The notes beneath the pieces are model-generated. The model was not told the origin of the DNA. It saw nothing but the letters and a program-made list of their open reading frames with translations, and ran no database searches. Shown one piece after another: positions 13,761-63,922 of a DNA stretch of 64,000 nucleotides. The stretch is from Glaucostegus cemiculus (taxonomy: Eukaryota): assembly GCA_976551045.1 (NCBI GenBank), contig CDPCPM010000076.1, positions 31,310,001 through 31,374,000 of the forward strand, in the 5' to 3' direction. How positions within the stretch are numbered: the stretch's first letter is position 1; the number at the start of each line of letters is the position of its first letter. The position numbers and the translations under genes are program-made.

Positions 13761-13842
13761 CACATTGCCATGGGTTTGGAGTCACATATAGGTCAGATCA
13801 GGTTACAGTAGCAGACTTCTTCCCATGAAGGACATTACTGCA

Positions 13843-14805
13843 GGCATGGTAGTGTAGTGGTTAGTGTAATGCTATTACAGCGCCGGCAACCTGGGTTCAA
13901 TTCCTGCTGCTTGGAGTTTCCAGCTTCCTGCTGGAGTTTGTACATTCTCCCTGTGTCTGCATGGATTTCAGTATCAGAATCATTTTTATTTTCACTACTA
14001 TATACACATTCAGTATGCATAGGAGCGAAATACCGTACTCCACAGGTCAAGGTGCTCGTCACATTAAAAAAAAACAATTAGAGACACAAAGACAGAAAGA
14101 CATTAAAAACATTGGAACCACAAAATTAAGTAACGACTCGAATAAACAATCTTAAAGTGAGTGTGCTGAGGCAGCAGACAATCTATATTTAAAGTGCTAG
14201 TACATTTCTGTATGCCTGGCATCCTTTGGTGTTGGCGGGAGGGATGGAGGGATAACGGAGTTCATGGTTCTGATAGCTTGTGGGAAGAAGCTATTGCACA
14301 GTCTGGTAGTCCTTGCCCGAATGCACTGGAGCCTTCTTCCAGATGTCAAGAGTGTAAAGAGGTGGTAGGAGGGGTGAGAAGGGTCCGACATTATGTTTGT
14401 GACCTTTCTGACTCATTGGTCCTTATATATATCTGCAATAGAGGGTAGAGAGTCACCTATGATCTTCTCTGCCACTCTCACTATTCTCTGAAGGGACTTC
14501 CGTCCAGCAGCTGAGCAGCTCCCATACCAGATGGTGATGCAGTGTGTCAGGATGCTCTCAATGGTCCCTCTATAAAAAATTTTCATAATAGAAGGATGGG
14601 AGTTCTCTTTCCTCAGTCTCCGGGTGCTCCAGTTTCCTCCCACATTCCAAAGAAGTAAGGGTTAGGAAATTGTAGGGATGCTATGTTGGCGCCTGAAGCA
14701 CGGTGACACTTGTGGGCTGCCCCCAGAACACTCTACACAACAGATGTACTTCACTGTGTGTTTCAATGTACATGTGACTAATAACAATATCTTTTCTTAT
14801 CTTAT
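13843..14805 (+). mobile_element. tRNA-derived SINE (V-SINE-like core, Rex-like 3' tail), split by a Rex1 insertion
   Basis: A box tagtgtagtgg and B box ggttcaattcc. The core resumes at 14618 (ctccgggtgctccagtttcctccc). Tail atgtacatgtgactaataac...atcttttcttatctt. Flanking ttactg repeats at 13835-13840 and 14806-14811. Confidence 0.85.
13968..14621 (-). mobile_element. Rex1/Babar-type LINE 3' fragment nested in the SINE
   Basis: ORFs FYRGTIESILTHCITIWYGSCS and DPSHPSYHLFTLLTSGRRL...NSFFPQAIR, with an (ATTCTG)-like tail at 13968-13982. Same family as 53200-54523. Confidence 0.92.
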
Positions 14806-16944: not shown

Positions 16945-17472
16945 GTGGATTAGGGAGAGTTGGTATGTCATCAAAGACTCTTGCAAATTTCTACATCTGT
17001 ATGGTGGAGAGCATTCAGACTGGTTGCATCACCACCTGGTATAGAGGCTCCTATATACAGGATCGAAAGAGGTTTCAGAGGGTTGTAGACTCAGCCAGCT
17101 CCATCATGGGCACAACCCTCCCTGCCTTCAAAGACATCTTCAAGAGGCAGTGCCTCAAGAAGGCGGCATCCAACATTAAGGACTCTCACCACCTGGGCCA
17201 TGCCCTCTTCACGTTACTACCATCGGGGAGGAGGTACAGAAGCCTGAAGACCTATACTCAATGTTTCAGGTACAGATTCTTCCCCTCCACCAAGAAATTT
17301 CTGAATGGTCCATGAACCCATGAACACTACCTCCTTATTCCTCTTTTACACTATTTATTTTTTTTAACTTATAGTAATTTTTGTGTCTTTATGTCTTGCA
17401 CTAGACTGCTGCCACAAAACAACAGATTTTATGTCATATGTCAGTGATAATAAACCTGATTTTGATTCTGAT
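16945..17472 (+). mobile_element. Rex1/Babar-type LINE 3' fragment
   Basis: ORF 16965-17315 has LANFYICMVESIQTGCITTWY...LFTLLPSGRRYRSL. Tail aataaacctgattttgattctga. Confidence 0.9.
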
Positions 17473-20400
17473 GGTTAGGGAAATTATACTATTTTCCCCA
17501 ACTCACTTTGATCAGCAGAATGTAAAGTGTTAACCTACCTACCAATGATTTGTCTATCTGTATCTTTTTCTCTGCTTTTGCCCCCTAATTGTGTTACCAT
17601 ACAGGGTCGTACTCCTTTCTCAATTTTCTGAATTACTGGTTACTTCAGTCTCTTCAGGCACACTTTTTAAATCCTGGTGCTGCAGTTCCTTGGAATCCCA
17701 CGAGCCTCCAATAAAATTTTGGAAATAAAGTCATAGCAAATGTAAACAGCACTCCAAAAACTACTCCCCTGCGTATCAATCTGCACCATTGCTTTATCAA
17801 AGGATGTTCCAGCATCAGTTCCTCTTAAGTGCCTTCAAAAAGAATTGATGTGTTCAATATCAGCAGCAATGTGGCAACGAATTCCAAATTCTAATCATTC
17901 TTTTTCTAAAGAGACTTCTTAAAACTTTTTCATTTCAATTCTTACCATGATTACTGTGCATTCATTGTCTCCCATTAGTATGCCATTGAACTGTGGAAAC
18001 AATCCATTATGTTTGCCCAATTGAACATTTTCATAACCCTGAAGCCCTCTCAGATAAACACAGAATTTTCAGTTTCAATGAGAAAAAGGGTCCCAATTTT
18101 TGAGAATTCTATTTATAATAAATGTCCTGAATTTTCAGATGGTCTTGCATCTTTTCCATTATCTTTATAATCTTTGCTCTAGCACAGTTTTCAAAGCTAC
18201 ACAATATGCCTGGTTGGAGGTTTACATTCTGTGATTCTAACTGCACAATTCTAAATTTTATCAAGTGTCACTTATAGTAACAAGTATATTCAGAATCATC
18301 TTACAACTTGCAGGTTTAAAATCTCATCTGTATTTTTACCTTCAAATTGCACTTCTACAATGAACTGTCCTTTCTTTGCCTGCATTTTTTCACTTTGTGC
18401 ACTGTCTGTTTTGATGGTGCATTTAATTTGTGGTGCTCTTCACTCTTCTTAGATTCAGGGCATTTATATGTCTGTAACAAATCAAACCAACTCCATCTTC
18501 AGCCTCTCCTGTGTAAAGGCACACAGAATGAGAGATTTACACCACCGAGCCCATTCCAACCAAATTTCTACCAAAACCTGGGAGCATTCTGTCCTTCAGT
18601 TGGAGAATAATGAGCTTCATAGGTCATAAATAAGAAGGACAGAAAGTTCCAAGACTCAATTATCTGCATCGGCTCAAGAGATCCAACGTACAAGCAGTAG
18701 ACTTCACTTGAAAACCCTGTTTTTGGAGGCTATACCTTTTAGGGAAGGTGTCATCAGCATATGCAAGGGATGATCACATGACTTCCAAGCACCAATGACA
18801 CCAGTACAATGTGGAATTAGCTGGAGGACAAAACTAACAAATTCTGCTGGGACTTTCATAGGTTTGTCAAAATTTAACCAAGCAGCACACATTGCAACAA
18901 TTACTCCCAAGTGGGAAACCAGCGGGCAGAGGCTCAGGCATTCCAGCCCATTGATTAGGAATATTTGACTCAGTGAGTAATTCCATTGGAGAAACTTATG
19001 ACACGGTTAGACCTTTTAAAGAAGGTCATTTGAAATATGAGTTGCAATACAACTGCTCTGAGTGAAGTATCTCAGTCAAGTATACTGCCCTGCATAATGG
19101 AAGCTCCCAGAGGGAAACATGGCAAACTGCCATCAAAGTTATTAGCTGTCATACAAATACTTTGAAGAACTCAAGAGATGGATAGCTCAATCTTGGTGAA
19201 TAGAAAATTCATCTTAGCCATCGTATGTGACATTCATTTCAAGCTGTACCTGACGCACCTGAAATATTAGTCTACAAATTGATCAGAGAGATCTGCACTA
19301 ACAAAACTCCTATACACTGCACCTGAGAATGGATGTTAACAAAAAAGCCTTATAATTCAGTCCCTAGGCCCAAGGTTGCTCTTATTACATGATTGGAGCA
19401 ATTCCCTTTTGGTGTGATTAAAAACAGTGCAGTTCCATCTTATTAAATTCAATCTGAAGTGGCATTGCTGCAGTGCCTTTATTTCTTCAATTGTCTGAAC
19501 TGTTCAATTGCATTATCAAAGTGATAGAGATGATATTAAAGATTTTGGTTACTAACACTAACCACTTTTCTGCCAACTGATCATATGGTTGTGCGATCGA
19601 AATTAATCAGGATGCTAATCACATTCCTGAACCCTTCTGCAACTTGTGTCTTTAGCAACATTTTTATTGTGTTAGCCTCATGCTAACCAGTTGTGTCATG
19701 TTTGCTGATTAGAACAATATTTACATAATGTTCAGGTCACTGAGAATGAATTTAACATAAACGTTGGTTCAAGATCAAAGAGATTGTGGGATGACAGCTC
19801 AGGCACCTGAAGTTTTTAATTGCACAGGGTTTGGCTGGCCAGTCAAAACTAAGCAGAAGCACTCAGTTGAGGGTGCTCCATCCTCGTGAGTTAGAGAGAA
19901 ACAACAATCACAGCAATGTCCAGTCGAAGACACAAGACTGATGGCACAAATGGATGGCACGTCTAATTATACAAAATGTTGGACATCCCAAATAATAGTT
20001 TTGATTTCTTTTGGATTCCAGCTTTAAGGCTCATTCATTTAAATGCTTTTTGTGAATCAAATGCCACATTAGACTTGCATGAGAGACCCACACTGCTGCC
20101 AGTCTGGAGCTTGCCTGATAATGGTACCCTAATGACAGGCCACACTGTTTCTCTACTTTTCTTCAGCATGTCCACTTGGGAGAAACCCCCCCTTATACTT
20201 CCCACCTGCTTTCCAGCATTGGTTGTTCTGGGCAGTGCATCTGGTGGTGTTCCAGTGTCAACAAATAGGCTTGGATCAGGTTAAATGGGCAAGTTAAAAA
20301 TAGCCCAAATCCTGTGTGAAATTGAGTTAGCATGGTTTACACTGAGACAAAAAGAACATGAAGAGTTCACCTGGAGGAGGATTTTCACAGTGGACACACT

Positions 20401-22493: not shown

Positions 22494-22917
22494 ATCAGAA
22501 TCAGAATCAGTTTTATTGTCACTACTATATACACATTCAGTATGCGTAGGAGCAAAATACCATACTCCACAGGTCAAGGTGCTCGTCACCTTAAAAAAAG
22601 AAACAAACACTGAGAGATACAAAGACAGAGAGACACTAAAAACATTAGAACCACAAAATTAAATAGCACAACTTAAATAAATAATCTTAAAGTGAGTGTA
22701 CTGGCAGCGGACATTTAAAGTTTCTGTGTTTCTGTACGCCTAGCATCCTTTAGTGTTGGCGGGAGTGATGGAGGGATGAAGGAGTTCTCAGTTCTGATAG
22801 CTTGTGGGAAGAAGCTATTGCACAGTCTAGTTGTCCTTGCCCTGATGCACTGGAGCCTTCTTCCAGACAGCAAGAGTGTGAAGAGATGGTAGGAGGGGTG
22901 AGAAGGGTCCAACATTA
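22494..22917 (-). mobile_element. Rex1/Babar-type LINE 3' fragment
   Basis: ORF 22715-22915 has DPSHPSYHLFTLLLSGRRLQCIRARTTRLCNSFFPQAIR, with a (gaatca)n tail at 22494-22510. Nearly identical to the copy at 13968. Confidence 0.92.
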
Positions 22918-23065
22918 TATTTAATCTTACTTGCTAATATTTTTTCAGACCTTCTCTTTGCTTTCTTAATTTCCCTCTTAACTTTATTCATACTTCTTCT
23001 GTACTCTTCCAAATTTCCTGCTGTTTTAAGTTCTCGGTGTCTGATATAACTTTCCCTTTGATGAT
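22918..23065 (-). mobile_element. Internal CR1 ORF2 linker fragment abutting the Rex 5' junction
   Basis: Reads RELKTAGNLEEYRRSMNKVKREIKKAKRRSEKILASKIK, homologous to the ETFKNLQKETKKVIRKEKRNYEMKLAENIQ segment of the 46436 ORF. Confidence 0.65.
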
Positions 23066-25257: not shown

Positions 25258-25940
25258 AAATTGGTAAATTATTGTCACGTGCACTGAGGTACAGTGAAAA
25301 CCTTGTCCTTCATACCACTCATACATATCAATTCATTACAATAGTGCATTGAGGTAGTACAAACCAAAACACTAACAGAGTGCAGAATAAAGTGTTACAG
25401 TTACCGAGAAAGTGCAGTGCAGGCAGACAGTAAGGTGCAAGGTCATAAGGAGGTAGATTGTGAGGTCAAGAGTCCATTTTATCGTACCAGGGAACTGTTC
25501 AATAGTCTTATAACAGCAGGATGGATGTTGTCCTTGAACCTGGTGGTATGTGCTTTCAGGCTTTTGTATCTTCTGCCTGATCAGAGGGGGAGAACAAAAG
25601 AGAATTCCTGGGTGGGTGGGGTCTTTGACTATGCTGGCTGCTTTACCAAGGCAGCAATGTATAGACAAAGTCCATGGTTAGTTGCTGGTTTCCGTAATGT
25701 GTTGAGCTGTGTCCACAACTCTCTGCAGTTTCTTGTGGTCACAGGCAGAGCAGTTGCCATACCAAGCTGTGATGCTTCTGGATAGGATGCTTCCTATAGT
25801 GCATCAATAAAAATTGGTGAGGGTCAAAGGGGTCATGCCAAATTTCTTTAGCCTTCTGAGGAAGGAGAGGCGCTGGTGAGCTTTCTTAGCCATGGGATCT
25901 ATGTGGTCAGACCAGGACAGGATATTGTTGACTTGCACTG
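25258..25940 (-). mobile_element. Rex1/Babar-type LINE 3' fragment
   Basis: AKKAHQRLSFLRRLKKFGM...LTNFY and CLGKAASIVKDPTHPG. Similar to 63090-63922. Confidence 0.9.
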
Positions 25941-27184
25941 AATATTTGCAACAATTCATATTGAAACTTGTAGTAATATTCAGATTTGTTGAATTTGAAT
26001 GTGTTTTAATATTGTTTCTTTTGTGCATCCTGTTCAGCGTAGGCTCTTAATTCATCAAGTACCAAATTCAACAAATATGAACATGAACCATTTTGTAGCT
26101 GTGTTTCTGTCACTGTTTTATTGCATCTGCTTGCATTTGATGTATCATGCTCTGTGCCATCATTGCAATCTGTCAATCTCTCTTTGCAATTCCTGCCAAA
26201 TACAATACCATGAATTAAGGGAAGAAAGAGAACTGGCCAGAGTCTGCAAGAAAAAGGAGAACACACACCAACTTCAAGCAAACTGAACTAATTCTTCTTT
26301 TCCCAACACAAACTCTGCTTGAAACTAAAGATTCAATTCTTTCAGCCAATTATGCTTTACCCAGGACACTATTCTTGATGTGGCATCTCGTCCTCTGAGC
26401 ATTTAAAAGTGACACTTTGGAAAGATTGGATTGGATCGCCCTTGCTGTTCTTTTCCTATTACTCATTCCATTCAAGACATTTAGATCAAATCTCAACCCA
26501 GATCAGAGGACAGCCTGTTCTGATCAATCAGAATTAAGCAATCCCTTTGACAATAGAAAGTTGGCAAGTTGTTTTCTTCTCTTTCCTTCTCCTCCACCTT
26601 CTAAACTTGAGCTATTCTTGGATAACAGAACATCAAAATTGTTTGCAATTTAACTGGTGGCAGGCTATTTTTGCATTGCATCAGGCTCAATGCTAACCAC
26701 CCCAAGCTGGCAGAGGCCTGGTAAGGAAATCACTTAAAATGACACCAGCCACATTCCCAACTCTGATCTTGTTTGCCCTTCAGCATTTCTCAATATTAAC
26801 CAGCACTTCTGAGCAGACATACAAAGTGGAGTCCAGTTTCAAATATGCATGTCCAATCCGATGATATCAGCAGGCTCATCTGTAATACCAGCCAGAAACC
26901 AAAGTGAGGGGGAGAGTGTGGTTGGGAGTGGGTTTTGAATGTCAGCAAAGGAGGACATGTACGCTGGCTGGACTGTGCTCAAGCTGTCTGCGCCTCTCAT
27001 TCAGTCTTGCACAAGGCTGTTCCTTCTGTCCCATCTGTCCCCACTATTTAATTTTAATTAAATCTAATTCATAAAAACGCAGTGTTACATTTTGGTAGAA
27101 AGAATAAAAAGAAGCAATATAACTAGAAGACATAACTTTAAAAGAGAAGGAAGAAGAGCAAGACCTGTATCTGTACATAGTTCA

Positions 27185-28030: not shown

Positions 28031-29654
28031 TCTTCACCATCCTTTACATCCTGTACCGTCATGGTCACTGCCTCCATCAATCACTGCCCAACTCCCAGCA
28101 GCAAATGTGGGAGACCTACTGACCTTGCACACTGGTCAAATATCAAGCAGGACACTTAATAGCTTTTAACAGATGAGGTCCTTCCTCTGGGATCAGCAGG
28201 TTCTCAGTGGCCATGGCCTTCCTGAACACTTTGCCTACACTCTCTCTGCTTCCCTTTTAGTGTCAGGTCCAATGTCAAACTGGTGTTGAAAGTTAATCAA
28301 GGTATTCACACTGTTTATTAACCTCCAAACATTTGAAAAACCCTTGGAAGTACAATGGCGATTTGTGAGAAAGTGTTAGCTCAAGCATACTGTCCAGTTG
28401 AACATTCTGAAGTATTACAGTCCCTGCAGTTCGACAATTAGAGTTTGTATGCAGTATTAACCCTGTACTGAAAAGCACATTCTGTCCACCTGTTATTATT
28501 TCAATAATAGGTGGACACTATTGAATTAACTAATCACAAGCTAACCAGTAACCAGCAAGATTTAACAAAACCAATTTTGTTAAATATATTCCAAACATCA
28601 GAAATAATTTCACTAAATATTTGAGAATATGCTTCTGGCACACAGGTTATTTCTGCAAACCAAAAATGTGGGCTGTATGCAAAAGCAGATTGGCAATGTT
28701 TGCATTCTAATGTCACAGGAATTTCATCACAATAAATATATATCATCATACAGAGCCTAAATAATCCATTTGGGGAAGGCCAAGAATTATCAGATCATTT
28801 TCTTCTCCTGTTTCTTGGCTTTGTGCAGAAATAAGTTTATTCTTTAAGATCTAAAATACCTCGATGGGAAAGAGATTGCATCCGTATTCTGATTCATTGA
28901 ATTTCCAATACCAGGTAGTGTTCAACCATTCAAATAAGCACAGAAAAAAGCCTTGCAATAGGATTCCTCTCTGGAGATTTTGCAGCACTGGGGGGCAGAA
29001 AAAAGCAATGGATTTTTTATGCACGGGTTGTTAAGAAAGGTGAAGATGGTATGCTTTTTTTGTTCCAGGTTGTGAATGCATAAGATGAAAGCGAGTGTTC
29101 TTAAATAAACATGCTCAGGGAAAAAAATGCAACAGCTGCACAAGTTGAAATAAATAAAACATATTGAGGAGAGAGAAAAGAAGGACAAGAGGTGTCTCAA
29201 CCCAATTTTCATCTTGCTTTCCTATCCCAGGGGGATTTCAGAGCTTCCCTAAAAGCTTTTAAATCTTCACACAAATCGCTGGGGATCTTCCAGCTATGAG
29301 TTCCTGAGATGATTTGATGGTAAAAACAGCCTGTATTTTTGCAGTGTTTTAAAAGTTCGCATATAGTTTCAGAATATTTGCATGGCATTGGATTACCTCC
29401 ACTTATCCTGTAGCAATTTAGGTATCTAAAGTATAACAAAGTACATTGAATGAGCATAGTGGGGAGGCTGCCAAAATTTGGGCAATATAAAGCAGATTGA
29501 TACATATCCCACAAATAATCCTTCAAACATCCTAAACAAGTGAAAGGATAATTGAATAAGACAAGAGGGGAAATGAGGGAAAAAATGAAAATGTCACCTG
29601 ATGGATTTAATAATTTTTAAACAATTTAGCATAGTTTTAGTAAGGTGATGAAAT

Positions 29655-29948
29655 GCATCCATCAGTAAGGGCCCTCACCATCTGGGACATGCCATCTTTG
29701 CTTTACTACCATCGGGAAGGAGGTACAGGAGCCTGAAGACCCATACCTAACATTTTAGGAACAGCTTCTTCCCCTCCACCATCAGATTTCTAAACAGTCC
29801 ATGAACCCAAGAATACTACCTCGTTATTCCTCTTTTGCACTATTTATTTGTTTTGTAACTTATAATAGTTTTTGTGCCTTGCACTATACTGCTGCCACAA
29901 AACAACAAATTTCACGACATTTGTTGGTGATAATAAACCTGATTCTGA
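29655..29948 (+). mobile_element. Rex1/Babar-type LINE 3' fragment
   Basis: ttactaccatcgggaaggaggtacaggagcctgaagacc (LLPSGRRYRSLKT) and tail aataaacctgattctga. Same family as 16945-17472. Confidence 0.88.
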
Positions 29949-30599
29949 AATTTATGTTATAACCAGATACATTCAGTAGCAATTTACTATCATTGCCCTC
30001 TTCAGAACTATCGTGCATCTTATAAATATTCAAACTCTATTCCTTTGATATTGAGACATGTATTTCACAGTTTTTTTTCTCGACTTTGCAAAACCAAAAC
30101 TTGTACATAGTCTTTTGGAACAAAGACAACGACAAGCAAGCTCGCAGGTCATTGAATGTTAAGAATAGGGGGTTGGACTCTCTTTTGTTTGAGGTGTTCT
30201 CTTGGCATAAATGTTACTTGACCTTTATTAACTATGCCTGATTGATATGTAGGTATTGCTGTATGCAGACATAAGCTCTTCATTTTCTGAGGAGGTGTAA
30301 ATGTAATTGAATATTGTGAAATAATCAGCAAGAAAGGATTGTACATATGCAATGAGGGACTTTGTCACAGGCTTATCATCATTCCTAGAGGTTCAATGGA
30401 CTTAAGTGTAAACTGATCACTCCATTGAGAACTGCTGGTGAGGTCCTCTCTTTCTGTCAACTTGTCCCTGATCTCTGGTTCTGTGCACTACAGAAAGGAG
30501 GTCAGAGATGAGCTGAAGATCAGATGTCAGCACACCTGACCTCCTGCTCTACTGCCAGGATATAGCACACATCATATCCACTACAAGGCAACAGATTTC

Positions 30600-31295
30600 C
30601 ACAAACAATATGATGTCTCACCCCTCTTCCTGCAAAGGCTCCATTCTATTCTCCCAATTCCTTCAACTCCATCATATTAGTTCTGATGACAAGACTTTCT
30701 ACAACAGTGCTTTTGAGGTGTTTCCTTTTCTCCTTAACTGGCTTCCCCACGACTATAGTTGACAAGGCTGTCAGTCACCTCTGTTCTATTTCCTGCACTT
30801 CTGTTGTTAACTGTCTCCTCCCACTCAGAGCAAGAACAGGGTTTCATTTGACCACACCCTCCATCCCACCAGCTTTCACATTCAACAGATCATCCTCTAT
30901 AACTTCCATGACCTTCAACAAGACTCCACCAGCTGACTGTCCTCTAGCACATCAATCCTCTTCCAGCATTTGAAAAGATTAATTCCTTCCATGACTCCCT
31001 GTTCCACTCTTCCTTTTCGACCAACACCAATTCCCATTCTCACTGTGCCTTGGTGCAACCACAAACTTTGCAACACCTGCCTTTCCACCTATTCCCTTCC
31101 CACCATCCAACACAAATGTCAGAATCAGAATCAGTTTTTATTGTCACTACTATGCAGTCTTCATTCGTTCTTGGAACATGCTGCATTCTAAATTTTCCCA
31201 GTCTGATCAAAGGATATTGACCTAAAATACCAACTCTTTTTCCCCCAACATAAGTGCTATCTGAATTGCTGGGTATATCAAGCATTTTCTGGTCT
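30600..31295 (+). mobile_element. Decayed Penelope-like element fragment with a tiny nested Rex 3' tail (31119-31155)
   Basis: Degenerate PLE motifs (GFPTTIVDKA, CNHKLCNTC...SLPTIQ) and a decayed pLTR at 31195-31290. tcagaatcagaatcagtttttattgtcactacta matches the Rex tail. Confidence 0.65.
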
Positions 31296-34457: not shown

Positions 34458-34875
34458 TCAAGCTCAAGGTTATTGTCATGGGCATACATACCCAGGGTAT
34501 AAATGCCATGAAAATTGCTTTTTGCAGCAGCAGCACAGTATATTACAAACATGACAGGCATAAGTTACATAAACTTAAATTAACCTAAATTGTACTTAAC
34601 TTACATGACAAAATAAACAAAAATAGACATAAAGGCATTAGTGTAAGTTGAGGGAAATATAGTCCGAGCTAGAATTAGAGCTTTTCAGGTCAGTTCAAGA
34701 ACCCGATGGCAGTGGGGAAGAAGCTGTTGTTGAACCTTGAGGTGTGTGTCTTCCGGCTCCTGTACCTCCTGCCTAATGACAGCAACGAGAAGACGGCATG
34801 GCCCAGATGGTGGGGGTCCTCAATGATGGATATTGCCTTCCTGAGACATCATCACTTGTAGGTGTCCTCGATGGC
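34458..34875 (-). mobile_element. Rex1/Babar-type LINE 3' fragment
   Basis: gggaagaagctgttgttgaaccttgaggtgtgtgtcttccggctcctgtacctcctgcc is the reverse complement of GRRYRSRKTHTSRFNNSFFP. Tail region ttattgtcatg. Confidence 0.85.
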
Positions 34876-43689: not shown

Positions 43690-44640
43690 GCTGGAAGAGG
43701 AAGGAGCAGGGGAAGAGGGTCTCAGCAGAAGCTTCCTTCCATTAAGTGTGCTCTGGGATTGATGCACTGACATAAATATCAGCAATGCATCTGCACTGCT
43801 GTAAGGACATCCTCACTGAAATATGTCATGTCCTGTAGCCAACACTGCGATCTCAGAACAGGACAAGGACTGCATTGTCAATATCACAAACCATTAACTT
43901 TCATATGTCAACGTCCTTCCAGACTGGAGTTTGAAACATTTCCAGAATCTAATAATGCATCACCTACTGCATTATAAGACTAAAGATGCTCTTGATTCAA
44001 AAGAAGGCAAAGTACATTTCTTTTTCTCTCATCCAAGACCATCAGGCAGAGAGAGTGCATGTCTTCACAAGGGTTTTGTGTGGAGCAGGGTTCCAACAAC
44101 TGCAGACGAGTGGCTTTGCAGACATTAAATTTCAGTTCAGGTGGCCCACTCATTCAGTGTTCAGCTGGTGTGTGACCAGACACAACAGTTCTCATGAACT
44201 TATTTCAAAGTACTTTTGACTGAAGCACAAGACCAAGTTGAATTCTTAGTTGCTGCTCCAAGCTCTGGAAGGAACCTGGCTGTATGCCTGGTATCTTCAA
44301 AGCAATCACGATGGCTTAATACTGAAACACTTCGCTATGCGACATGTACTTGAACCACAACACACCAAAGGGTGGCAACTGGGCAACAAGGGCTGTCTGC
44401 AAACCATATGGCTCTTGGCTCCCATCTCCAATGCACATGAATAAACAAGCCATACTGCCAATCAAAATGTGACAGAGTACACTTTTCGTAGCTGGCTAAG
44501 CAGCCCTGAAGTAGCTTTCTTTTACTTAGTACAGCTGGTGTCAAAGTTAGTGATCATCCCTGAATCCTGCACATCCTCACCATCGTGAGTGTATGACACC
44601 GGCTATACCATGAGCAGAACAGCAGAAGGAGGACGAGACA
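43690..44640 (+). pseudogene. Harbinger (HARBI1-like, DDE_Tnp_4) transposase pseudogene
   Basis: Collinear motifs ILTEICHVL*PTLRSQNRTRTAL, INFHMSTSFQTG, YISFSLIQDHQAER, HSFSVQLVCDQ (44147-44179), YLQSNHDGLIL and GWQLGNKGCLQTIWLLAP. Stops and frameshifts are present, GDKGY reads GNKGC, and the GAIDCTH motif is not seen. Confidence 0.85.
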
Positions 44641-46140: not shown

Positions 46141-46435
46141 AAAATGTGTCGGTGAATCTTGTACATGTGCTTGTTTCTACATGTTGAACGAGCTAGGGCT
46201 TTTCTCTTTAGAGAGAAGGAAGATGGTTACTTGATAGATATCTCTATTTGTCACATGTACATCGAAACGCGAAGTGAAATACATCTTTTTGCGTAGTGTT
46301 CTGGGGGCAGCCCGCAAGTGTCGCCGCGTTTTCGGCACCAACATAGCATGCCCACAGCTTCCTAACCTGTACGTCTTTGGAATGTGGGAGGAAACCGGAG
46401 CACCTGAAGGAAACTCACACAGACATGGAGAGAAC

Positions 46436-48352
46436 ATGAAAGCTAAAATAAGAGCAAAAGGGAGGGCATATAAGGTAGCAAGAAAAAGCGGAAAAACAGA
46501 AGACTGGGAAACTTTTAAGAACCTACAGAAAGAAACTAAGAAGGTTATTAGAAAAGAAAAGAGAAATTACGAAATGAAATTGGCAGAAAACATTCAAAAG
46601 GATACTAAGAGTTTTTTTAAATATATAAGAAGCAGAAGAGAGACGCGGGTTGATATAGGACCGATAGAAAATGAGGCGGGAGAGATTATTATGGGTGATA
46701 AAGAGATGGCGGAGGTGCTAAATCAGTATTTTGCGTCGGTCTTCACGGTAGAAGATATTAACAATATACCGGTTAGTCAAGGGTCTCGAGGGACGGAATT
46801 AAAGACAGTTAAGGTTACGAGAGAGAAAGTGTTGGGGAAGCTAAATGGGTTAAAGACTGATAAGTCTCCGGGACCGGATGAGATACATCCCCGTGTACTG
46901 AAGGAAGTAGCTCTAGAAATAGTGGAGGCATTAGTGATAATTTTTCAGGAATTGATAGACGCTGGAGAGGTGCCGGAGGACTGGAGGGTCGCGAATGTAG
47001 TTCCATTGTATAAGAAAGGTGGGAGACAACACAGAGGAAATTACAGACCTATCAGTCTTACATCTGTGGTGGGGAAGATACTAGAATCGATCCTCAAGGA
47101 TGAGGTGATGGGATACATGGAGGTGCAAGGCAAGATAGGTCCTAGTCAACATGGATTCATGAAGGGAAGATCCTGCCTGACCAATTTATTGGAGTTTTTT
47201 GAAGAAATCTCAGGCAGGGTGGACAAGGGAGAGGCCGTAGATGTAGTGTATTTAGACTTTCAGAAGGCATTCGACAAGGTGCCGCACAAAAGACTAATTA
47301 GTAAGATGAGAGATCACGGAATAACTGGCAGGATAACAGAATGGGTGGAGAGTTGGCTGGATGGCAGGAAGCAGAGGGTGGGAATAAAAGGATCGTGTTC
47401 TGGTTGGCTGCCGGTTACTAGTGGTGTTCCGCAGGGGTCGGTGTTGGGGCCCCTTCTTTTTACCTTATATATTAATGATTTAGACGAAGGAGTCAATGGG
47501 TTTGTGGCCAAGTTTGCAGATGACACTAAGATTGGGGGAGGAGTGGAGAGTATTGAGGAGACAGGAAAGTTACAGAGAGACTTGGATATTCTAGGAGAAT
47601 GGGCGAAGAAATGGCAGATGAGGTTCAACGTGGAAAAATGTGCAGTTGTACACTTCGGAAGTAGAAATGGAAGGGCAGACTATTATCTAGAAGGAGATAA
47701 AATTGGAAGCACAGAAGTACAAAGGGACTTAGGGGTGCTCGTACAGGATAACCTAAAGGTTAACCGCCAGGTTGGATCGGCAGTAAGGAAAGCGAATGCT
47801 ATGTTGGCATTTATTTCGAGGGGTATAGTATATAAAAGCAAGGAAGTGTTGATGAGGCTATACGGGGCACTGGTGAGGCCTCACTTGGAGTACTGTGTGC
47901 AGTTTTGGGCCCCATACCTTAGGAAGGATGTGCTGATGTTGGAGAGGGTTCAGAGGAGATTTACTAGGATGATTCCTGGGATGAAAAAGTTTACATATGA
48001 CGAGCGACTGTCGTCACTTGGACTGTACTCGTTGGAGTACAGAAGAATGAGAGGGGACCTAATAGAAACGTACAGGATGTTGAAAGGAATGGACCAAGTG
48101 AATGTGGTCAAGCTGTTTCCCTTGGTGGGGGAATCCAGGACTAGAGGACACAAACTTAGAATTAGAAGAAGCAGGTTCAAAACAGAGATAAGGAGGAATT
48201 TCTTTAGCCAGAGGGTGGTGAACCTGTGGAACTCCTTACCACAGAAAGCAGTGGAAGCCAGATCATTGGGGATATTCAAGAAGGAAATTGATAGATATCT
48301 AATTGGTCAAGGTATCAAGGGATATGGAGATAAGGCAGGGATTTGGACTTAG
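46436..48352 (+). CDS. CR1 ORF2 fragment: intact reverse transcriptase and C-terminal domain, no endonuclease (638 aa from the junction ATG)
   Basis: KSPGPDEIHPRVLKE, NYRPISLTS, YLDFQKAFDKV, GVPQGSVLGP, KFADDTK and RPHLEYCVQFW lie in one stop-free frame. The 54 codons upstream in the track ORF (46274) are antisense SINE. Expression is not shown. Confidence 0.85.
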   Translation: MKAKIRAKGRAYKVARKSGKTEDWETFKNLQKETKKVIRKEKRNYEMKLAENIQKDTKSFFKYIRSRRETRVDIGPIENEAGEIIMGDKEMAEVLNQYFASVFTVEDINNIPVSQGSRGTELKTVKVTREKVLGKLNGLKTDKSPGPDEIHPRVLKEVALEIVEALVIIFQELIDAGEVPEDWRVANVVPLYKKGGRQHRGNYRPISLTSVVGKILESILKDEVMGYMEVQGKIGPSQHGFMKGRSCLTNLLEFFEEISGRVDKGEAVDVVYLDFQKAFDKVPHKRLISKMRDHGITGRITEWVESWLDGRKQRVGIKGSCSGWLPVTSGVPQGSVLGPLLFTLYINDLDEGVNGFVAKFADDTKIGGGVESIEETGKLQRDLDILGEWAKKWQMRFNVEKCAVVHFGSRNGRADYYLEGDKIGSTEVQRDLGVLVQDNLKVNRQVGSAVRKANAMLAFISRGIVYKSKEVLMRLYGALVRPHLEYCVQFWAPYLRKDVLMLERVQRRFTRMIPGMKKFTYDERLSSLGLYSLEYRRMRGDLIETYRMLKGMDQVNVVKLFPLVGESRTRGHKLRIRRSRFKTEIRRNFFSQRVVNLWNSLPQKAVEARSLGIFKKEIDRYLIGQGIKGYGDKAGIWT

Positions 48353-48471: not shown

Positions 48472-48565
48472 AATATACAAGCTCCTGACAGACAGTGGCT
48501 GGATTTGAACCTGGGTCACTGGCACTGTAAAGTGTTATGCTAACCACTACACTACCACACCTGCC

Positions 48566-51779: not shown

Positions 51780-53199
51780 AGGTACAAAAACTGGTTGAGC
51801 CAACTTGCAGGGACCAAAACCACAAGAGAGCAGTGTACCATCAAAATCAGTTATATATTCCAGAACAAAATCAATTACTCATTAAATTGTATTGGCCAAA
51901 CCTCATCCCATAACACTCTGAAGGGAATCCTTACTGTGGCCCTTTCATTTGCAAACACAGCTTATAACAAGTCCTTTCAAGGAATTCAATAAGTATGATT
52001 TTTTAGTTGATTGGTAAATTCATCATAACCAACAATCAATGTACTTATTTTACTAAACAGTTAATAAAAAAGATTCCTGAATTAAATTTGCAATCCACAT
52101 TTGTCGGTCAGTAATCACTATGTGTTGTTTAATAGCTTTAATTTTTTTAAAATCTGATAGGGTCATGTAGGTAGTCATTGATTTCATGTTGTGCTTTCCC
52201 TGAATGACAGAATCTGCCAAACCTAAAGATTTTGCTGTCAGTGGATGCGTATTTTGTACACCATTGTAAACTCATGTCAGTTCTGTGCACTAGGTTGACT
52301 GGGGCTAAGAGCCTGCTCAGGGATGTTGCATTGTCAAATAGTGTTTATGTTATTCTTTATAGCGATTTTCTTATTATTTTGTCATATTAGATGACTTCAT
52401 TGAAGAACTGGAAACGCTGAGAAGAAATAAAACAGAAACCATTGTAAATACTTCACAGGCCAAGCAGAGAGAAAGAGACAGAGTGAATTTCCTCTGATAC
52501 CATGGGACCATTCAGATCACTCCTCCTTCTTGAATTGTCATTCCTTCATTGTTGCAGGGACAAAGCCCTGAAAATCCCATCATAACAATATCGTGGAAGC
52601 ACCCTCAGCATGAGACGCAGTGTTTGATCAATGAATGCTTATCAGAACTAAGAATACTTAGAGGTAAAGCACGTTTCAGGATGCAGAGAAAGGGGTTAGA
52701 GTAAATAGCAAAAGAGTGCTGATAGTGGTGGTGATGGTAAGAGGAAAATAACTATCTTAAGTCAGCAGAGGAATGTGGAATGAATACTAAAAGTCTGAAA
52801 TCAAATTGCCAGAAACACCGATTACCTGACTGTTGAACTGAATGTTGGATGCAGTACCATCTCCTCCACACTGTGGAGACCAAGCCACAGCCAGTTTTTC
52901 ACCTCTCTCTGGTCTCTCTATCTTAGTTTCCTGCATGTTGTGATAAAGGTCAATACAAGCTCAGAAACTCATCCGCCAACCAGGTATATTCACAGTCCTT
53001 CAGACTTAACACTCTGACTGCCCGACATGTATTTCCAGCATTTCCTATTTTTATTTCAGATTCCCAGCAACTGCAGTATTTTGCTTTTGTAACACAAGAA
53101 TATCAACAAGCGTTATCATTGAGAACATGACTCTTTTCGATATTTATTTATGAACGAGGCTTAGGTACACAGTGCATTGTTTCAAAAGCTGTAGGATCC

Positions 53200-54523
53200 T
53201 CTGCCATGCACTCTGCACTATATCACTTAGAGAAGAAGGATTCATACTGCCGACTGCTATTCATCGACTTCAGCTCCGCTTTCAATACCATCATCCCGCA
53301 ACAGCTAATCAGGAAGTTGAGCACTCTGGGCATTAACTCTCCTCTCTGCAACTGGATACTGGATTTTCTAACTTGCAGGCCGCAGTCAGTCAAAATTGGT
53401 GAAAACACCTCAGGCACCATCACACTGAGCACTGGCTCCCCACAGGGTTGTGTGCTCAGTCTGCTCCTGTTCACCTTGTTGACTCACGACTGTGAGGCCA
53501 GATCCAGCTCCAACCGCATTGTTAAATTTGCCGATGACACGACAGTGGTGGGTCTTGTCACGAATGACGATGAGAGGAGGTGAAACAACTAGCCGTGTGG
53601 TGCTATGACAACAACCTCCCCTTGAATGTGGATAAAACCAAGGAGATGATAGTGGATTTTAGGAGGGGTCACCGTGTGCACGCCCCACTGACCATCAACG
53701 GGTCTGCTGTGGAACAAGTACGCAGCACCAAGTTCCTGGGGGTGCACATCACTGACGACCTGACCTGGTCCACTAACATTACAGCCCTCACGAAGAAAGC
53801 TCAGAAACGCCTCTACTTCCTGCGGAGACTGAGGAAAGCGTACCCCCATCCCTCCGTCATGAAAACCTTCTATAGGGGGACCATTGAGAGCATCCTAACT
53901 CAATGTATCACTGTTTGGTTTGGAAGCTGCTCAGCTGCTGGGCGGAAGTCCCTCCAGAAGATAGTTAGGGCTGCAGAGTGGATCATAGGTGTCTCGCTTC
54001 CTTCCCTCGCAGACATATACAAAGACCGTTGTGTGAGGAAGACCAAAAGCATAATGGCCGACCCTTCTCACCCCTCCTACCACCTCTTTACAATTTTGCC
54101 ATCAGGGAGGAGGCTTAAACGTATCAGGGCAAGAACGACCAGGCTGAACAATAGCTTCTTTCCGCAAGCCATCAGAACTGCAAACTCTCTCATTCCTCCA
54201 TCTTCCTTTGTTAACACTAAGAGATGCTAGGTGCACAGAAATGCACCAGCACTTTAAATGCCCGACACCAGCCCGTTCACTTTAAGAACTATTTATTTAT
54301 TTATCAGCCATTTTTAATTTAATCTGAGTACTAATTTAATTTTAACTTCCGTAGTTTTTAATGTTTAATGTTTTTTAATGTTTATTCTGTCAAGTGTGTA
54401 TGTGTGTCTCTGTTGGTTGTTATTTTATGGGACGAGCACCTGAGGAGGACGGTATCTCGCTCCTATGCATACTATGTATGTATATGGTTGTGACAATAAA
54501 ACTGATTCTGATTCTGATTCTGA
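53200..54523 (+). mobile_element. Rex1/Babar-type LINE, 5'-truncated, RT with one frameshift
   Basis: [33 protein letters not shown], frameshift at ~53580, then KKAQKRLYFLRRL and LPSGRRL...NSFFPQAIR. Tail aataaaac(tgattc)x3. Confidence 0.95.
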
Positions 54524-58145: not shown

Positions 58146-59000
58146 CCAGCCTTCAAACTAATTCAGAATGAGAACAGAAAATTCTGGAATCACTGAAAAG
58201 ATCAAGTAGTATCAGGCAAAGAGGAGCAAAGTAGGCAATTTAGGCTGAAGAGCCTTTGTCAGAATTGAGAGTAAAAGAGAAGACAAGCGAGATTGAAGTT
58301 GCAGAGAAGGTAGGGAGGGGTGGATAAGAGAAAGGAAATATCTCTGATAGTGATGCCAGGATTGCCATGAGGGAAAGTTGAAGAGGACAACTGGTTGATG
58401 GGTGAATGGAGAGATGGGGGGGCGGTGGCTGAGGGGGTTAGGGACAGAGAATACGAAGAAAGGAACTTACCCAGTAGTGAAATGCAGTAGGACATGCTTG
58501 TTAGGTCAGGTTGTGCTGAGAGAGAAAGTCTGAGTCAATGACATAGATCAATGACATGGCCGTTCTGACACAGACAGAGAAAGAAAGTTACCTGAAGTTG
58601 TAGAATTTGATATCAAGTACGGAGGGCTGCCATTGTAGCAGTACAGGGAACAACAGATAGATGGGTCATTGGGAGTGGGAAGGAGAATTAATGAGGCAGG
58701 CAACAAGAACCATCTGTGGAAAATGAAACAGAGCTAACAATCGAGGTCAGAGAGCCTTCGTCAGGGCTAGAAAGGAGGAAAAATTTTATATATATATAAA
58801 ATTGCAGGGAGTGTGGGGAGGGGTGGATAGGATAAAAGGAATCTCTCTGATAGAGATTCTGCAAGGTCACTCCTGCAGAATGAACACAGATGCTCTACAA
58901 AGCTGTCACCCAATCTGCCTTTGGTTTCTCCAGCGTACAGAAGACCACACTGTGAGCACTGAATGCTGTAAATTAGAGTAGAAGTAGTGCATGTGAATCA

Positions 59001-59907
59001 GAATCAATTTATTGTCACTTTCACGTATACATGAAGGTGAGATATCGTTTCTCTACAGGCCAATGTGCAAAAGACATCAAAGACAACAAACATCAAAACA
59101 TTAACAGCCCCCAGCCTCACCCCGCACCGACGACAACCTCCAACCCCCGCAGTCCCACAACCTCAGGGCCCACAGTCCATCAACAACCTCCGGCCCGCAG
59201 TCCGACCGTCCGACCACCTCCGGCCCCGCAGTCCGACCACGACCACCTCCAGCTCCTTCGCCTCCGGCCTCGCAGTCCGACCACCTCCGGCTCCTTCGCC
59301 TCCGGCCTCGCAGTCCGACAACCTCCGGCCCCGCAGGCCAACGACCTCCGGCTCCGCAGTCTGACGACCTCCAGCCCCGAATTCCGGCTCCGCAGTCCGA
59401 CGACCTCCAGCCCCGAATTCCGGCTCCGCAGTCCGACGACCTCCAGCCCCGCAGACCGGCTCCGCAGTCCGACGACCTCCAGCCCCGCAGACCGGCTCCG
59501 CAGTCCGACAACCTCCAGCCCCGAATTCCAGCTCCGCAGTCCGACGACCTCCAGCCCCGCAGACCGGCTCCGCAGTCCGACGACCTCCAGCCCCGCAGGC
59601 CGACCACCGGACCTCCAGCCCGAGCAGCCCCCTCATCGCCCGCATCCCGACGCCACCACGAGGCTCCAGGGCCTTCGACACGCTGCCGCCTCCGATGAGC
59701 TCCGACGAGCCATCGGAGCCGTCAGTACAGACAACGTCTCCATAAAAACGAACCCAAGCACACAAACATCAGAAACAAAGAACACACACACAAAAAAAAG
59801 CAAAAAAACCACTAAAAGACTAACAAAAAAACACAAGCACTACAGACCTGTGAGAGGCCGCTGCAACTGTGTGCGCCGCCATCTAAAAAATAAATAAATA
59901 AATAAAT
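59001..59907 (-). mobile_element. Composite non-autonomous retroelement: (TTTA)n, YY1-motif 5' end, GC-rich VNTR, Rex1-type 3' end, (ATTCTG) tail
   Basis: The minus strand starts (ttta)n-ttttt-AGATGGCGGCGCAC and ends cctgtagagaaacgatatctc...gtgacaataaattgattctgattc, matching the Rex 3' end at 54440-54520. The host PLE rejoins across aatca (58996-59000 / 59908-59912). Confidence 0.75.
59349..59600. repeat. 36-bp CpG-rich minisatellite, 7 units, with related degenerate units at 59140-59348
   Basis: Unit cggctccgcagtccgacgacctccagccccg(aattc|cagac). Variant order E,E,A,A,E,A,A'. Confidence 0.95.
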
Positions 59908-60362
59908 AATCACTGCTTCACTTGGAAGTACGTGGATGGTGGGTAGGGAAGAATGAAAAAGACAGGCGTGACATCTCCTACAGTTGTATGGGAAAGGGCC
60001 ATAAGACTGGCAGTGGTAAGTGGGGACAGAAAATTGGACCATGGAGTCATGAAGGGAGTACTTTGTTTTTGAAACGCTCAGAAGGCGAATATGGGTCTGA
60101 CAGTGGAATCTTGTCGAAGCTGATAGAAATTGTAAAGAATGATCAGCTGAAGAGGTGGAAAGTAAGGACCAAGGGAATCTGATCCTTATTCTGGCTGGGA
60201 GGAGAAAGGGTGAGGGAAGAGGTGCAAAAAATAGATGAGATGCAGTCAAGGGATCTGTCAACCATGGTACAGGGGGAAGCCGTGTTCAGGAAGGAAGGCA
60301 CGTCAGATACACCTTAAAACCAACAGTCATTTTAAAGTAGAAGTGTTTTGCACCATTGTATT

Positions 60363-63089: not shown

Positions 63090-63922
63090 GGTATTGGTAT
63101 ATTATTGTTACTTGTACTGAGGTACAGTGTAAAGCTTGTCTTACAAACTGATCATACAGGCCAATTCATTTCACAGTGCAGTTACATTGAGTCATTACAG
63201 GGTGCATTGATGTAGTACAGGTAAAAACAATAACAGTACAGAGTAAAGTGTCATAGCTACAGAGAAAGTGCAGTGCAATAAGGTGCAAGGTCACAACAAG
63301 GTAGATTGTGAGGCCATACTCCATCTCATTGTACAAGGGAACTGTTCAATAGTCTTATCACAGTGGGGGTAGAAGCTGTCCTTAAGTCTGTGGTACATGC
63401 CCTCAGTCACCTTTATCTTCTACCCAATGGAAGAGGAGAGAAGAGAGAATGTCCCGGGTGGGTGGGGTCTTTGATTATGCTGGCTGCTTCACCAAGACAG
63501 CGAGAGGTAAAGACAGAGTACAAGGAGGGGAGGCTGGTGTCCATAATGCACTGGGCTGTGTCCACAACTCTCTTCACTTCTTGCAGTCCTGGGCAGTGCA
63601 GTTGCTGTACCAAGCCATGATACAACCAGATTGGATGCTTTCTACAGTGCATCTGTAAAAGTTGGTGAGAGTCAAAGAGGACAAACCAAGTTTCTTTAGC
63701 CTCCTGAGGAAGTAGAGGCGCTGGTGAGCTTTCTGGTCCATGGCTTCTATGCAATTTGACCAGCAGGGGCTGTTGGTGATGTTCACTCCCAGGAACTTGA
63801 AGCTTTCAACCCTCTACCTCAGCACCATGTTGTAGACAGGTGCATGTACACCACCCCCCTTCCTGAAGTCAATGACCAGCTCTTTTGTTTTGTTGACATT
63901 GAGGGCAAGGTTGTTGTCAATG
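63090..63922 (-). mobile_element. Rex1/Babar-type LINE 3' portion
   Basis: KAHQRLYFLRRLKKLG, NFYRCTVESIQSGCIMAWY and IIKDPTHPGHSLFSPLPLGRR. Tail ggtattggtatattattgt. Confidence 0.92.

Follow-up and report, generated by a model that had tools for sequence, protein, structure and literature searches.

Bipartite non-autonomous LINEs, which retain only the 5' and 3' ends of an autonomous LINE, were defined in work (PMC5786205) that, in the portions available, gives ORF-less ones as reported only from RTE, Ingi, Vingi and R2 as of 2018; the examples there are RTESINE1/2, WALLSI3 and Bov-A (RTE), RIME (Ingi), NARTc, derivatives of Vingi-1_EE and the R2 SIDEs, and the string 'rex' occurs 0 times in that text. 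Persaeus, a SIDE derived from CR1/Zenon in Lepidoptera, has a central region without homology to its parent, and transcription by Pol II with mobilisation in trans has been proposed for it (PMC6740152; 'tandem' occurs 0 times in the available text). The SVA, LAVA, PVA and FVA elements are hominoid-specific and L1-driven and, according to the available parts of PMC4432496, carry a head of CT-hexamer/Alu-like type together with 3' parts of unrelated origin; expansion of their VNTR is attributed there to microhomology, and the VNTR is reported to help LAVA mobilisation. SINEs with tRNA or 5S heads (Hpa I, SlmI, OS-SINE1, SINE2-5_NV) are paired with RSg-1 or Rex1 LINEs (available passages of PMC3747384). 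Rays are among the vertebrates richest in Rex1, and horizontal transfer of Rex1 between rays and teleosts has been described (PMC13343379, in excerpt). In the literature searched, where subscription papers and Repbase Reports were thinly covered, no Rex1-derived SIDE and no non-primate VNTR composite was found, nor does such an element occur in the main-text passages available from PMC7245038, PMC6274825 and a manta preprint (10.64898/2026.10.27.761883); the element described here may nevertheless already be catalogued in Repbase or Dfam.

This element is a 907-bp insert at 59001-59907, on the minus strand, of the window, by which we mean the whole 64,000-nt stretch of Glaucostegus cemiculus contig CDPCPM010000076.1 that was analysed. 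Read along the minus strand it comprises a 23-nt (ATTT)4-AT6 run, the AGATGGCGGCGC motif, a T-rich leader, a 127-nt GC-rich spacer, a tandem array and a 3' end of about 100 nt. It is flanked by a 5-bp target-site duplication, AATCA on the plus strand and TGATT on the minus, the 5' copy at 59908-59912 and the 3' copy at 58996-59000, the latter forming, together with the next base, one tail unit (microhomology). The host is a decayed Penelope-like element, with an upstream half at 59913-60300 (minus strand; similar to 30724-31109) and a downstream half with a GIY-YIG-like motif at 58767-58995 (minus strand); the frame of the upstream half reaches the duplication, and the downstream half is in phase once the insert and one copy of the duplication are discounted. 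The 907-bp insert is a real, well-formed insertion, and the original prediction of a roughly 0.9-kb minus-strand insertion of this layout, cleanly splitting a Penelope-like element with AATCA on both sides, was exact at 59001-59907. Assignment of the downstream half to GIY-YIG is best treated as a lead: its 76 residues adjoin eukaryotic GIY-YIG clusters in the ESM Atlas (score 0.94; family on 21-22% of members), and Pfam gave no match for this half. A second Penelope-like remnant contains a Rex1 tail of about 35 nt (31119-31155, minus strand), some 10 nt from the site equivalent to the 907-bp insertion point and in opposite orientation (flank match 61%, E 0.002), possibly a hot spot or chance.

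The 5' end of the element, as compared with published sequences, is that of an ordinary Rex1 LINE. Behind the 23-nt run (59885-59907, minus strand), a Rex1 5' terminus occupies 59823-59884 (minus strand) and consists of AGATGGCGGCGC, which starts at 59884, an 8-nt spacer, GCAGCGGC and, about 15 nt on, a second shared block; within it lie a YY1-like core and the ATG that is the predicted ORF start in some fish Rex1, and it is followed by a T-rich leader (59744-59822, minus strand) as in Rex1 5' UTRs. Comparison by eye with LeuEri_Rex1-8 of the little skate gives 26/26 identical nucleotides from the ATG and places the second common block about 15 nt downstream, so that, as in a SIDE, the 5' end comes from the 5' terminus of an autonomous LINE; IctPun_Rex1-2 differs once in the first 28 nt. 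In the part of PMC13343379 Supp. Table 2 available, where comparisons cover the first 400 nt of each consensus, all 16 of the rows carrying agatggcggcg are Rex1 and all carry it at the consensus start, and 11 of these 16, counted by eye, have the motif-8 nt-GCWGCGGC spacing of the element. Fish and snake Rex1 elements begin in the same way in the available part of a sea-snake supplement (PMC7846101), in which the bare 5' motif also opens a Proto2 element; it is therefore the spaced, two-part motif that points to Rex1. The two-part pattern built from the Rex1 rows matches the window once, at 59857-59884, and matched 0/100 shuffles.

For five cyprinid Rex1 proteins the predicted start is the ATG within the 5' motif, giving MAARAHAAAS or near variants; from the same ATG the element reads MAAHTVAAAS, with a stop after 20 codons. 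In cyprinid Rex1 the YY1-like motif may thus also serve as the start codon, a few bases in from the terminus. Published Rex1 starts are mostly CCAAGATGG, where the element has a T run, and because this run replaces CCAAGATGG the YY1 core of the element is imperfect with respect to what we take to be the YY1 consensus. Words made of a T run plus AGATGG occur 0 times in the available portions of two Rex1 supplements (PMC13343379, PMC7846101). The (ATTT)n run may have arisen by slippage or untemplated addition, as a transduced flank, or as part of the master element. The Rex1 copy at 54 kb has in its 3' UTR a 15-nt TATT-repeat run (54290-54304, plus strand) identical to part of this 5' run, which is likely a chance match of simple repeats. 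The YY1-type motif and T-rich leader of the original description do not form a module in their own right: both belong to what is, on these alignments, the standard 5' UTR of autonomous Rex1 LINEs.

The other extremity is also of Rex1 type. The 3' end (59001-59103, minus strand) contains a T-rich stretch, a hairpin (59040-59015), AATAAA (59013-59008) and one TGATTC tail unit, the same architecture as published fish Rex1 ends. Aligned with five Rex1 tails of the window, its last 105 nt scored 46, 60, 56, 51 and 31, values reached by 0/1000 shuffles for each of the first four and by 13/1000 for the fifth (score 31). The best alignment partner among same-type tails, the 14-kb Rex1, gives 70 identities, 22 mismatches and 16 gap columns (0/1000 shuffles). 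With AATAAA and tail removed, the 14-kb and 22-kb copies stay at 0/1000 shuffles and the 54-kb copy at 16/1000. As in SIDEs, then, the 3' end, like the 5' end, goes back to the corresponding terminus of a Rex1-clade LINE. Homology to the Rex1 LINE at 54440-54523, as originally proposed, holds as regards the type of tail; this particular copy is, however, the weakest of three same-type matches (46 versus 60 and 56). The 14-, 22- and 54-kb tails agree among themselves at 100/121, 99/117 and 116/125 aligned bases and the element at 70/92 at best, and from this closer mutual similarity we infer that the driver belongs to a Rex1 subfamily other than those in the window.

The 54-kb copy itself, a relative of the driver and not the driver, is a 5'-truncated LINE (53131-54523, plus strand) encoding RVT_1 and ALKBH8_N/DUF1891; it was called Rex1 on account of this domain pair, which we take to be a mark of Rex1, and of a tail like published Rex1 ends. 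Its relatives are 51-75% identical, the named ones all from teleosts. Two distinct Rex1 subfamilies are present in the window, their copies 5'-truncated, one at 13968-14622, 22495-22924, 31119-31155 and 53131-54523 and a second at 16956-17474, 25260-25941, 29652-29949, 34678-34875 and 63093-63921; six 3' ends found from the tail pattern all close with AATAAA and ATTCTG-type repeats, and that of the element represents a third type. Short target duplications were sought at the other six Rex1 pieces of the window, whose 5' boundaries are approximate, and no convincing case was found. The 14-kb piece (13840-14792) appears nested in a short repeat, its flanks matching 48498-48564 and 46236-46404.

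The predicted 3' stem-loop does form, at 59040-59015, and 2 of the 3 same-type Rex1 tails in the window fold a hairpin at the same position; it is nonetheless not unusually stable (z -0.65; 49/200 shuffles fold as well), and its stability was accordingly set aside as proof of function. The predicted hexamer-type tail is likewise present, but as a single TGATTC unit followed by the target, itself TGATTC. This identity of tail unit and target would fit priming by tail-target pairing.

No coding remnant of the parent was found between the two ends. A profile of 12 named fish Rex1 proteins detected 16 stretches in the window, none of them in the element; the best tblastn match to a Rex1 ORF start in the spacer had an E value of 0.2; and neither Pfam nor the Rex1 profile detected reverse transcriptase or endonuclease coding in the element, again as in a SIDE. 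Autonomous Rex1/Babar elements of about 3.2 kb carry an APE-RT ORF with a DUF1891 C-terminus, which is absent from the 0.9-kb element, whereas near-identity over the first 26-28 nt, the T-rich leader and the 3' architecture are common to both (LeuEri_Rex1-8, -9 and -2 and IctPun_Rex1-2, in the available portion of PMC13343379). Searches for an RNA-gene head gave no tRNA (ARAGORN) and no Rfam match in the window and, by pattern search, no A/B boxes in the element. The earlier statement that reverse transcriptase and tRNA A/B boxes are missing is borne out by all of these searches. Absence of a small-RNA head or Pol III promoter is a further feature of SIDEs, and sets the element apart from classical SINEs with their tRNA, 5S or 7SL heads. 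The SINEs paired with Rex1 or with RSg-1 (presumably itself of the Rex1 clade) are, like the element, non-autonomous with a common 3' end; their tRNA or 5S heads and Pol III promoters are absent from it. No more than 140 nt from the 5' motif there are five T runs of at least 4 nt (4-8 nt); since such runs would be expected to stop Pol III and no Pol III head is present, transcription by Pol III is argued against. The element is probably transcribed by Pol II, as had been proposed, from a putative internal promoter of the Rex1 type.

Since both ends are Rex1 and no coding remnant is found, the element is better described as a bipartite SIDE than as a composite whose parts have unrelated origins. 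The rival picture is an SVA-like element made by joining an independent head, not from Rex, and a VNTR to the tail of a Rex1, or else a SINE of Pol III type bearing such a tail. In its favour, the 5' simple-repeat run and the GC-rich VNTR with ordered variants resemble SVA, the 127-nt spacer and the array could be foreign, and tRNA- and 5S-headed SINEs do pair with RSg-1 or Rex1 LINEs (PMC3747384, passages available). We regard it as highly improbable: the head is Rex1 itself, which largely refutes that part of the proposal, there is neither a tRNA, 5S or 7SL head nor a poly(A) tail, and at most the centre is foreign, as in Persaeus. We also rejected the opposite orientation, in which (TAAA)n would be a poly(A)-like tail on the plus strand, because both Rex1 ends run along the minus strand. 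What we consider probable is that the element is a Rex1-derived bipartite SIDE that has lost its ORF, with a GC-rich VNTR between the kept ends, and a member of a propagating family.

The predicted CpG-rich array of 36-bp units was recovered by TRF (period 36, 7.1 copies, 93% matches, score 414, 59347-59602), which also extends it through degenerate 23/38-bp units to about 59146. It follows the GC/CpG-rich spacer (59617-59743, minus strand, 127 nt), in which the CpG observed/expected ratio (o/e) is 1.12 and no Rex1 ORF start is recognisable; immediately before the array, the sense strand of the spacer shows one G3-type quadruplex-like pattern (about 59648-59619, minus strand). The array is built of modules of 10 and 13 nt, one of each making a 23-nt core. 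Its young block (59350-59616, minus strand) consists of a 28-nt lead unit, six 36-bp units and one bare core, each 36-mer being a 23-nt core plus a second 13-mer in one of two variants, in the order A B A A B B. The older block (59104-59349, minus strand) has units of 23, 23, 15, 23, 15, 29 and 30 nt, the 15-, 29- and 30-nt units thus coming after the 36-mers, and passes into CpG-decayed degenerate units. In form, a GC-rich central VNTR of 30-50-bp units in ordered variants is what the element has in common with the SVA group, an analogy of form only. About 50% of the array is G on the sense strand.

All three sense frames are open across the 36-bp block, and a 306-codon stop-free antisense frame (58977-59897, plus strand) spans the whole element; the latter gave 0 matches among 8000 candidates of 168-536 aa in a word-indexed protein search and is probably an effect of composition. 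A protein-coding array was considered and rejected: the long open frames follow from base composition, no stretch passed for the Pfam DIKK1 C-subdomain, and DUF6184 stayed below threshold.

The composition and the age structure of the array bear on how the element came about. Over the whole element the o/e ratio reaches 1.12, whereas that of the window is 0.23. No other Takai-Jones island exists in the 64 kb, and of the 6 Gardiner-Garden islands the element is one. Within the element, spacer, young block and middle block all lie at 1.09-1.12, and the ratio drops to 0.68 over the final 88 nt (59104-59191), so that by this measure the array ages from 5' to 3'. Because the six 36-mers are nearly identical, the last expansion is recent. 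Among the seven youngest units, all private substitutions (3/3) are transitions at CpG sites, which suggests that the array is methylated; over ten cores, 5 of 12 substitutions are CpG transitions, with CpG sites making up 7 of 23 columns. The array thus looks methylated, and the proposal that the element deposits CpG islands is weakened, appearing to hold for base composition only.

CpGs remain intact in the 5' motif, the spacer and the young array, next to an array end that has decayed. This suggests an array that grew old in previous copies before being moved, the 907-bp copy being recent and the array older than the copy. This layered ageing favours, though indirectly, a propagating family with serial retrotransposition over a one-off deletion. 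It also bears on a further reading, in which a short Rex1 derivative was inserted with little array and its VNTR grew only later, in place, into a minisatellite specific to this locus. The six near-identical 36-mers, whose last expansion was recent and may have been local, would suit such growth in place; a long stay at one methylated locus should, however, have eroded the degenerate units and the adjacent spacer alike, whereas their o/e ratios are 0.68 and 1.12. We hold this reading to be improbable.

A more serious competitor, though in our estimate still rather unlikely, is that an autonomous batoid Rex1 subfamily carries the array in its 5' region and that this copy lost its ORF, through a template jump in reverse transcription or a post-insertion deletion, with no non-autonomous family involved. 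The element is single-copy in the window, and all its sense frames are open through the 36-bp block. According to the available part of the PMC13343379 supplement, moreover, LeuEri_Rex1-7, -1 and -15, PriPec_Rex1-1 and ScyCan_Rex1-2 and -3 have GC-rich repeats or duplications behind the leader, LeuEri_Rex1-7 being 4191 nt long as against about 3200, and the accessible text of the same paper mentions that some elements lacking ORF1 have repeat subunits close to the 5' UTR. These GC-rich tandem or low-complexity repeats of elasmobranch Rex1 sit between leader and endonuclease in the sequences available, the duplications in LeuEri_Rex1-1 and -15 and PriPec_Rex1-1 being shorter. The longest of the published repeats (LeuEri_Rex1-7, ScyCan_Rex1-2 and -3) are, however, C-rich on the sense strand, in the portion of the supplement available, whereas the array is G-rich. 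None of three array words (tcggactgcg, ggaggtcgtc and ctgcggggct) is present in the first 400 nt of the consensus rows of the PMC13343379 table, as far as it is available; in the available part of the sea-snake supplement (PMC7846101) two are likewise absent, and the third turns up 5 times, each time within unrelated RT coding sequence. Comparison with Rex1 5' UTRs, which had been suggested at the outset, thus matches the head and, within those 400 nt, finds no array word, yet some elasmobranch Rex1 do have GC-rich repeats. The 23-, 29- and 38-nt units would, furthermore, break a reading frame, and the retained 3' part of about 100 nt is of the size of a SINE tail, as against a 3' UTR of about 290 nt in the 54-kb copy.

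If the element is indeed a bipartite SIDE of a propagating family, its cycle may be pictured as follows. Pol II would transcribe it from an internal promoter in the Rex1 5' end, and the endonuclease/reverse transcriptase of an intact Rex1 of another subfamily would bind the 3' hairpin-AATAAA-tail, by analogy with stringent-type LINE/SINE pairs. Target-primed reverse transcription would then take place with the TGATTC tail unit pairing with an identical genomic hexamer, leaving the 5-bp duplication. The array would grow at the DNA level from the 10- and 13-nt modules by slippage or microhomology, be carried along in each round and become methylated after insertion.

In this design the element resembles the bipartite LINEs of PMC5786205 in retaining only the 5' and 3' ends of an autonomous LINE; unlike them it has a Rex1 parent, and no VNTR core is mentioned in the portions of that paper available. 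The closest match in design is Persaeus (PMC6740152, text available in part), likewise made of LINE 5' and 3' ends, without an ORF or a Pol III head and with a non-homologous centre. The Rex1 parent, the cartilaginous-fish host, a hexamer-repeat tail in place of poly(A) and a 0.5-kb GC-rich VNTR centre distinguish the element from it, and Persaeus is a multi-copy family, whereas the Rex1-derived element is known from one copy.

The original description of the element as an independent SVA analogue stands in part. As in the SVA group, to judge from the available parts of PMC4432496, it is non-coding, with a GC-rich VNTR of ordered unit variants and a simple repeat at the 5' tip; mobilisation by a LINE in trans and transcription by Pol II are further likenesses that for this element are only probable. 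In place of the CT-hexamer and Alu-like 5' domain of SVA it has (ATTT)n and a Rex1 terminus, with no Rfam match; in place of L1 mobilisation, a poly(A) tail and restriction to hominoids it has a Rex1-type hexamer tail and a batoid-like host; and at its ends it is not a composite, since SVA takes its 5' and 3' domains from unrelated parents, whereas both ends here are Rex1. The description of a Rex1-tailed, VNTR-carrying, non-autonomous retro-insertion is upheld by a 3' similarity above that of shuffles and by the lack of an ORF. A far-reaching form of this idea we put forward tentatively, as possible but doubtful: rays would harbour a high-copy, still active Rex1-derived SIDE family with a VNTR, captured or self-made, that differs in length from copy to copy, which would make it a convergent counterpart of SVA outside the primates.

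Were such a high-copy family to exist, CpG-dense minisatellites would be spread through the genome. With a family, Rex1 would join the few LINE clades known to give rise to bipartite parasites without an ORF (RTE, Ingi, Vingi, R2: PMC5786205; CR1/Zenon: PMC6740152). It would be a second independent system with a VNTR inside a LINE-mobilised RNA, raising the question of whether the VNTR aids mobilisation; it would also supply a genome whose o/e ratio is near 0.23 with CpG-dense patches and with polymorphic minisatellites at dispersed sites. The element also brackets the minimal Rex1 cis-elements, its retained 5' part measuring about 62 nt and its 3' part about 100 nt. A single deleted copy, by contrast, would be ordinary LINE debris.

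Self-BLAST found no second copy in the 64-kb window. Protein searches for further copies covered 2 of the 6 frames; phmmer with a 201-aa sense frame returned 41 matches, and the 11 of these that were examined are all unrelated low-complexity repeats. In GTDB, a prokaryotic collection where emptiness is expected, the Rex1 protein gave 62 pattern matches with 0 confirmed and the 5' motif 0 matches, and in plasmid collections, where the same expectation applies, one search gave two short GC-rich chance matches and another none. No host exon was found by Pfam in the 150 scanned of 352 non-repeat ORFs of at least 48 aa; one of the 150 gave a borderline Defensin_3 match (43996-44172, plus strand, E 0.0026), taken as chance. 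The window also contains an apparently young CR1-type LINE (46238-48352, plus strand) with a 704-codon stop-free frame, RVT_1 and an o/e ratio of 0.62; this frame makes a batoid host likely, its identity among the best 120 of 7730 matches being 82% with a Pristis pectinata protein, 70% with Mobula birostris, 64% with Chiloscyllium punctatum and no more than 54% with proteins of birds and turtles.
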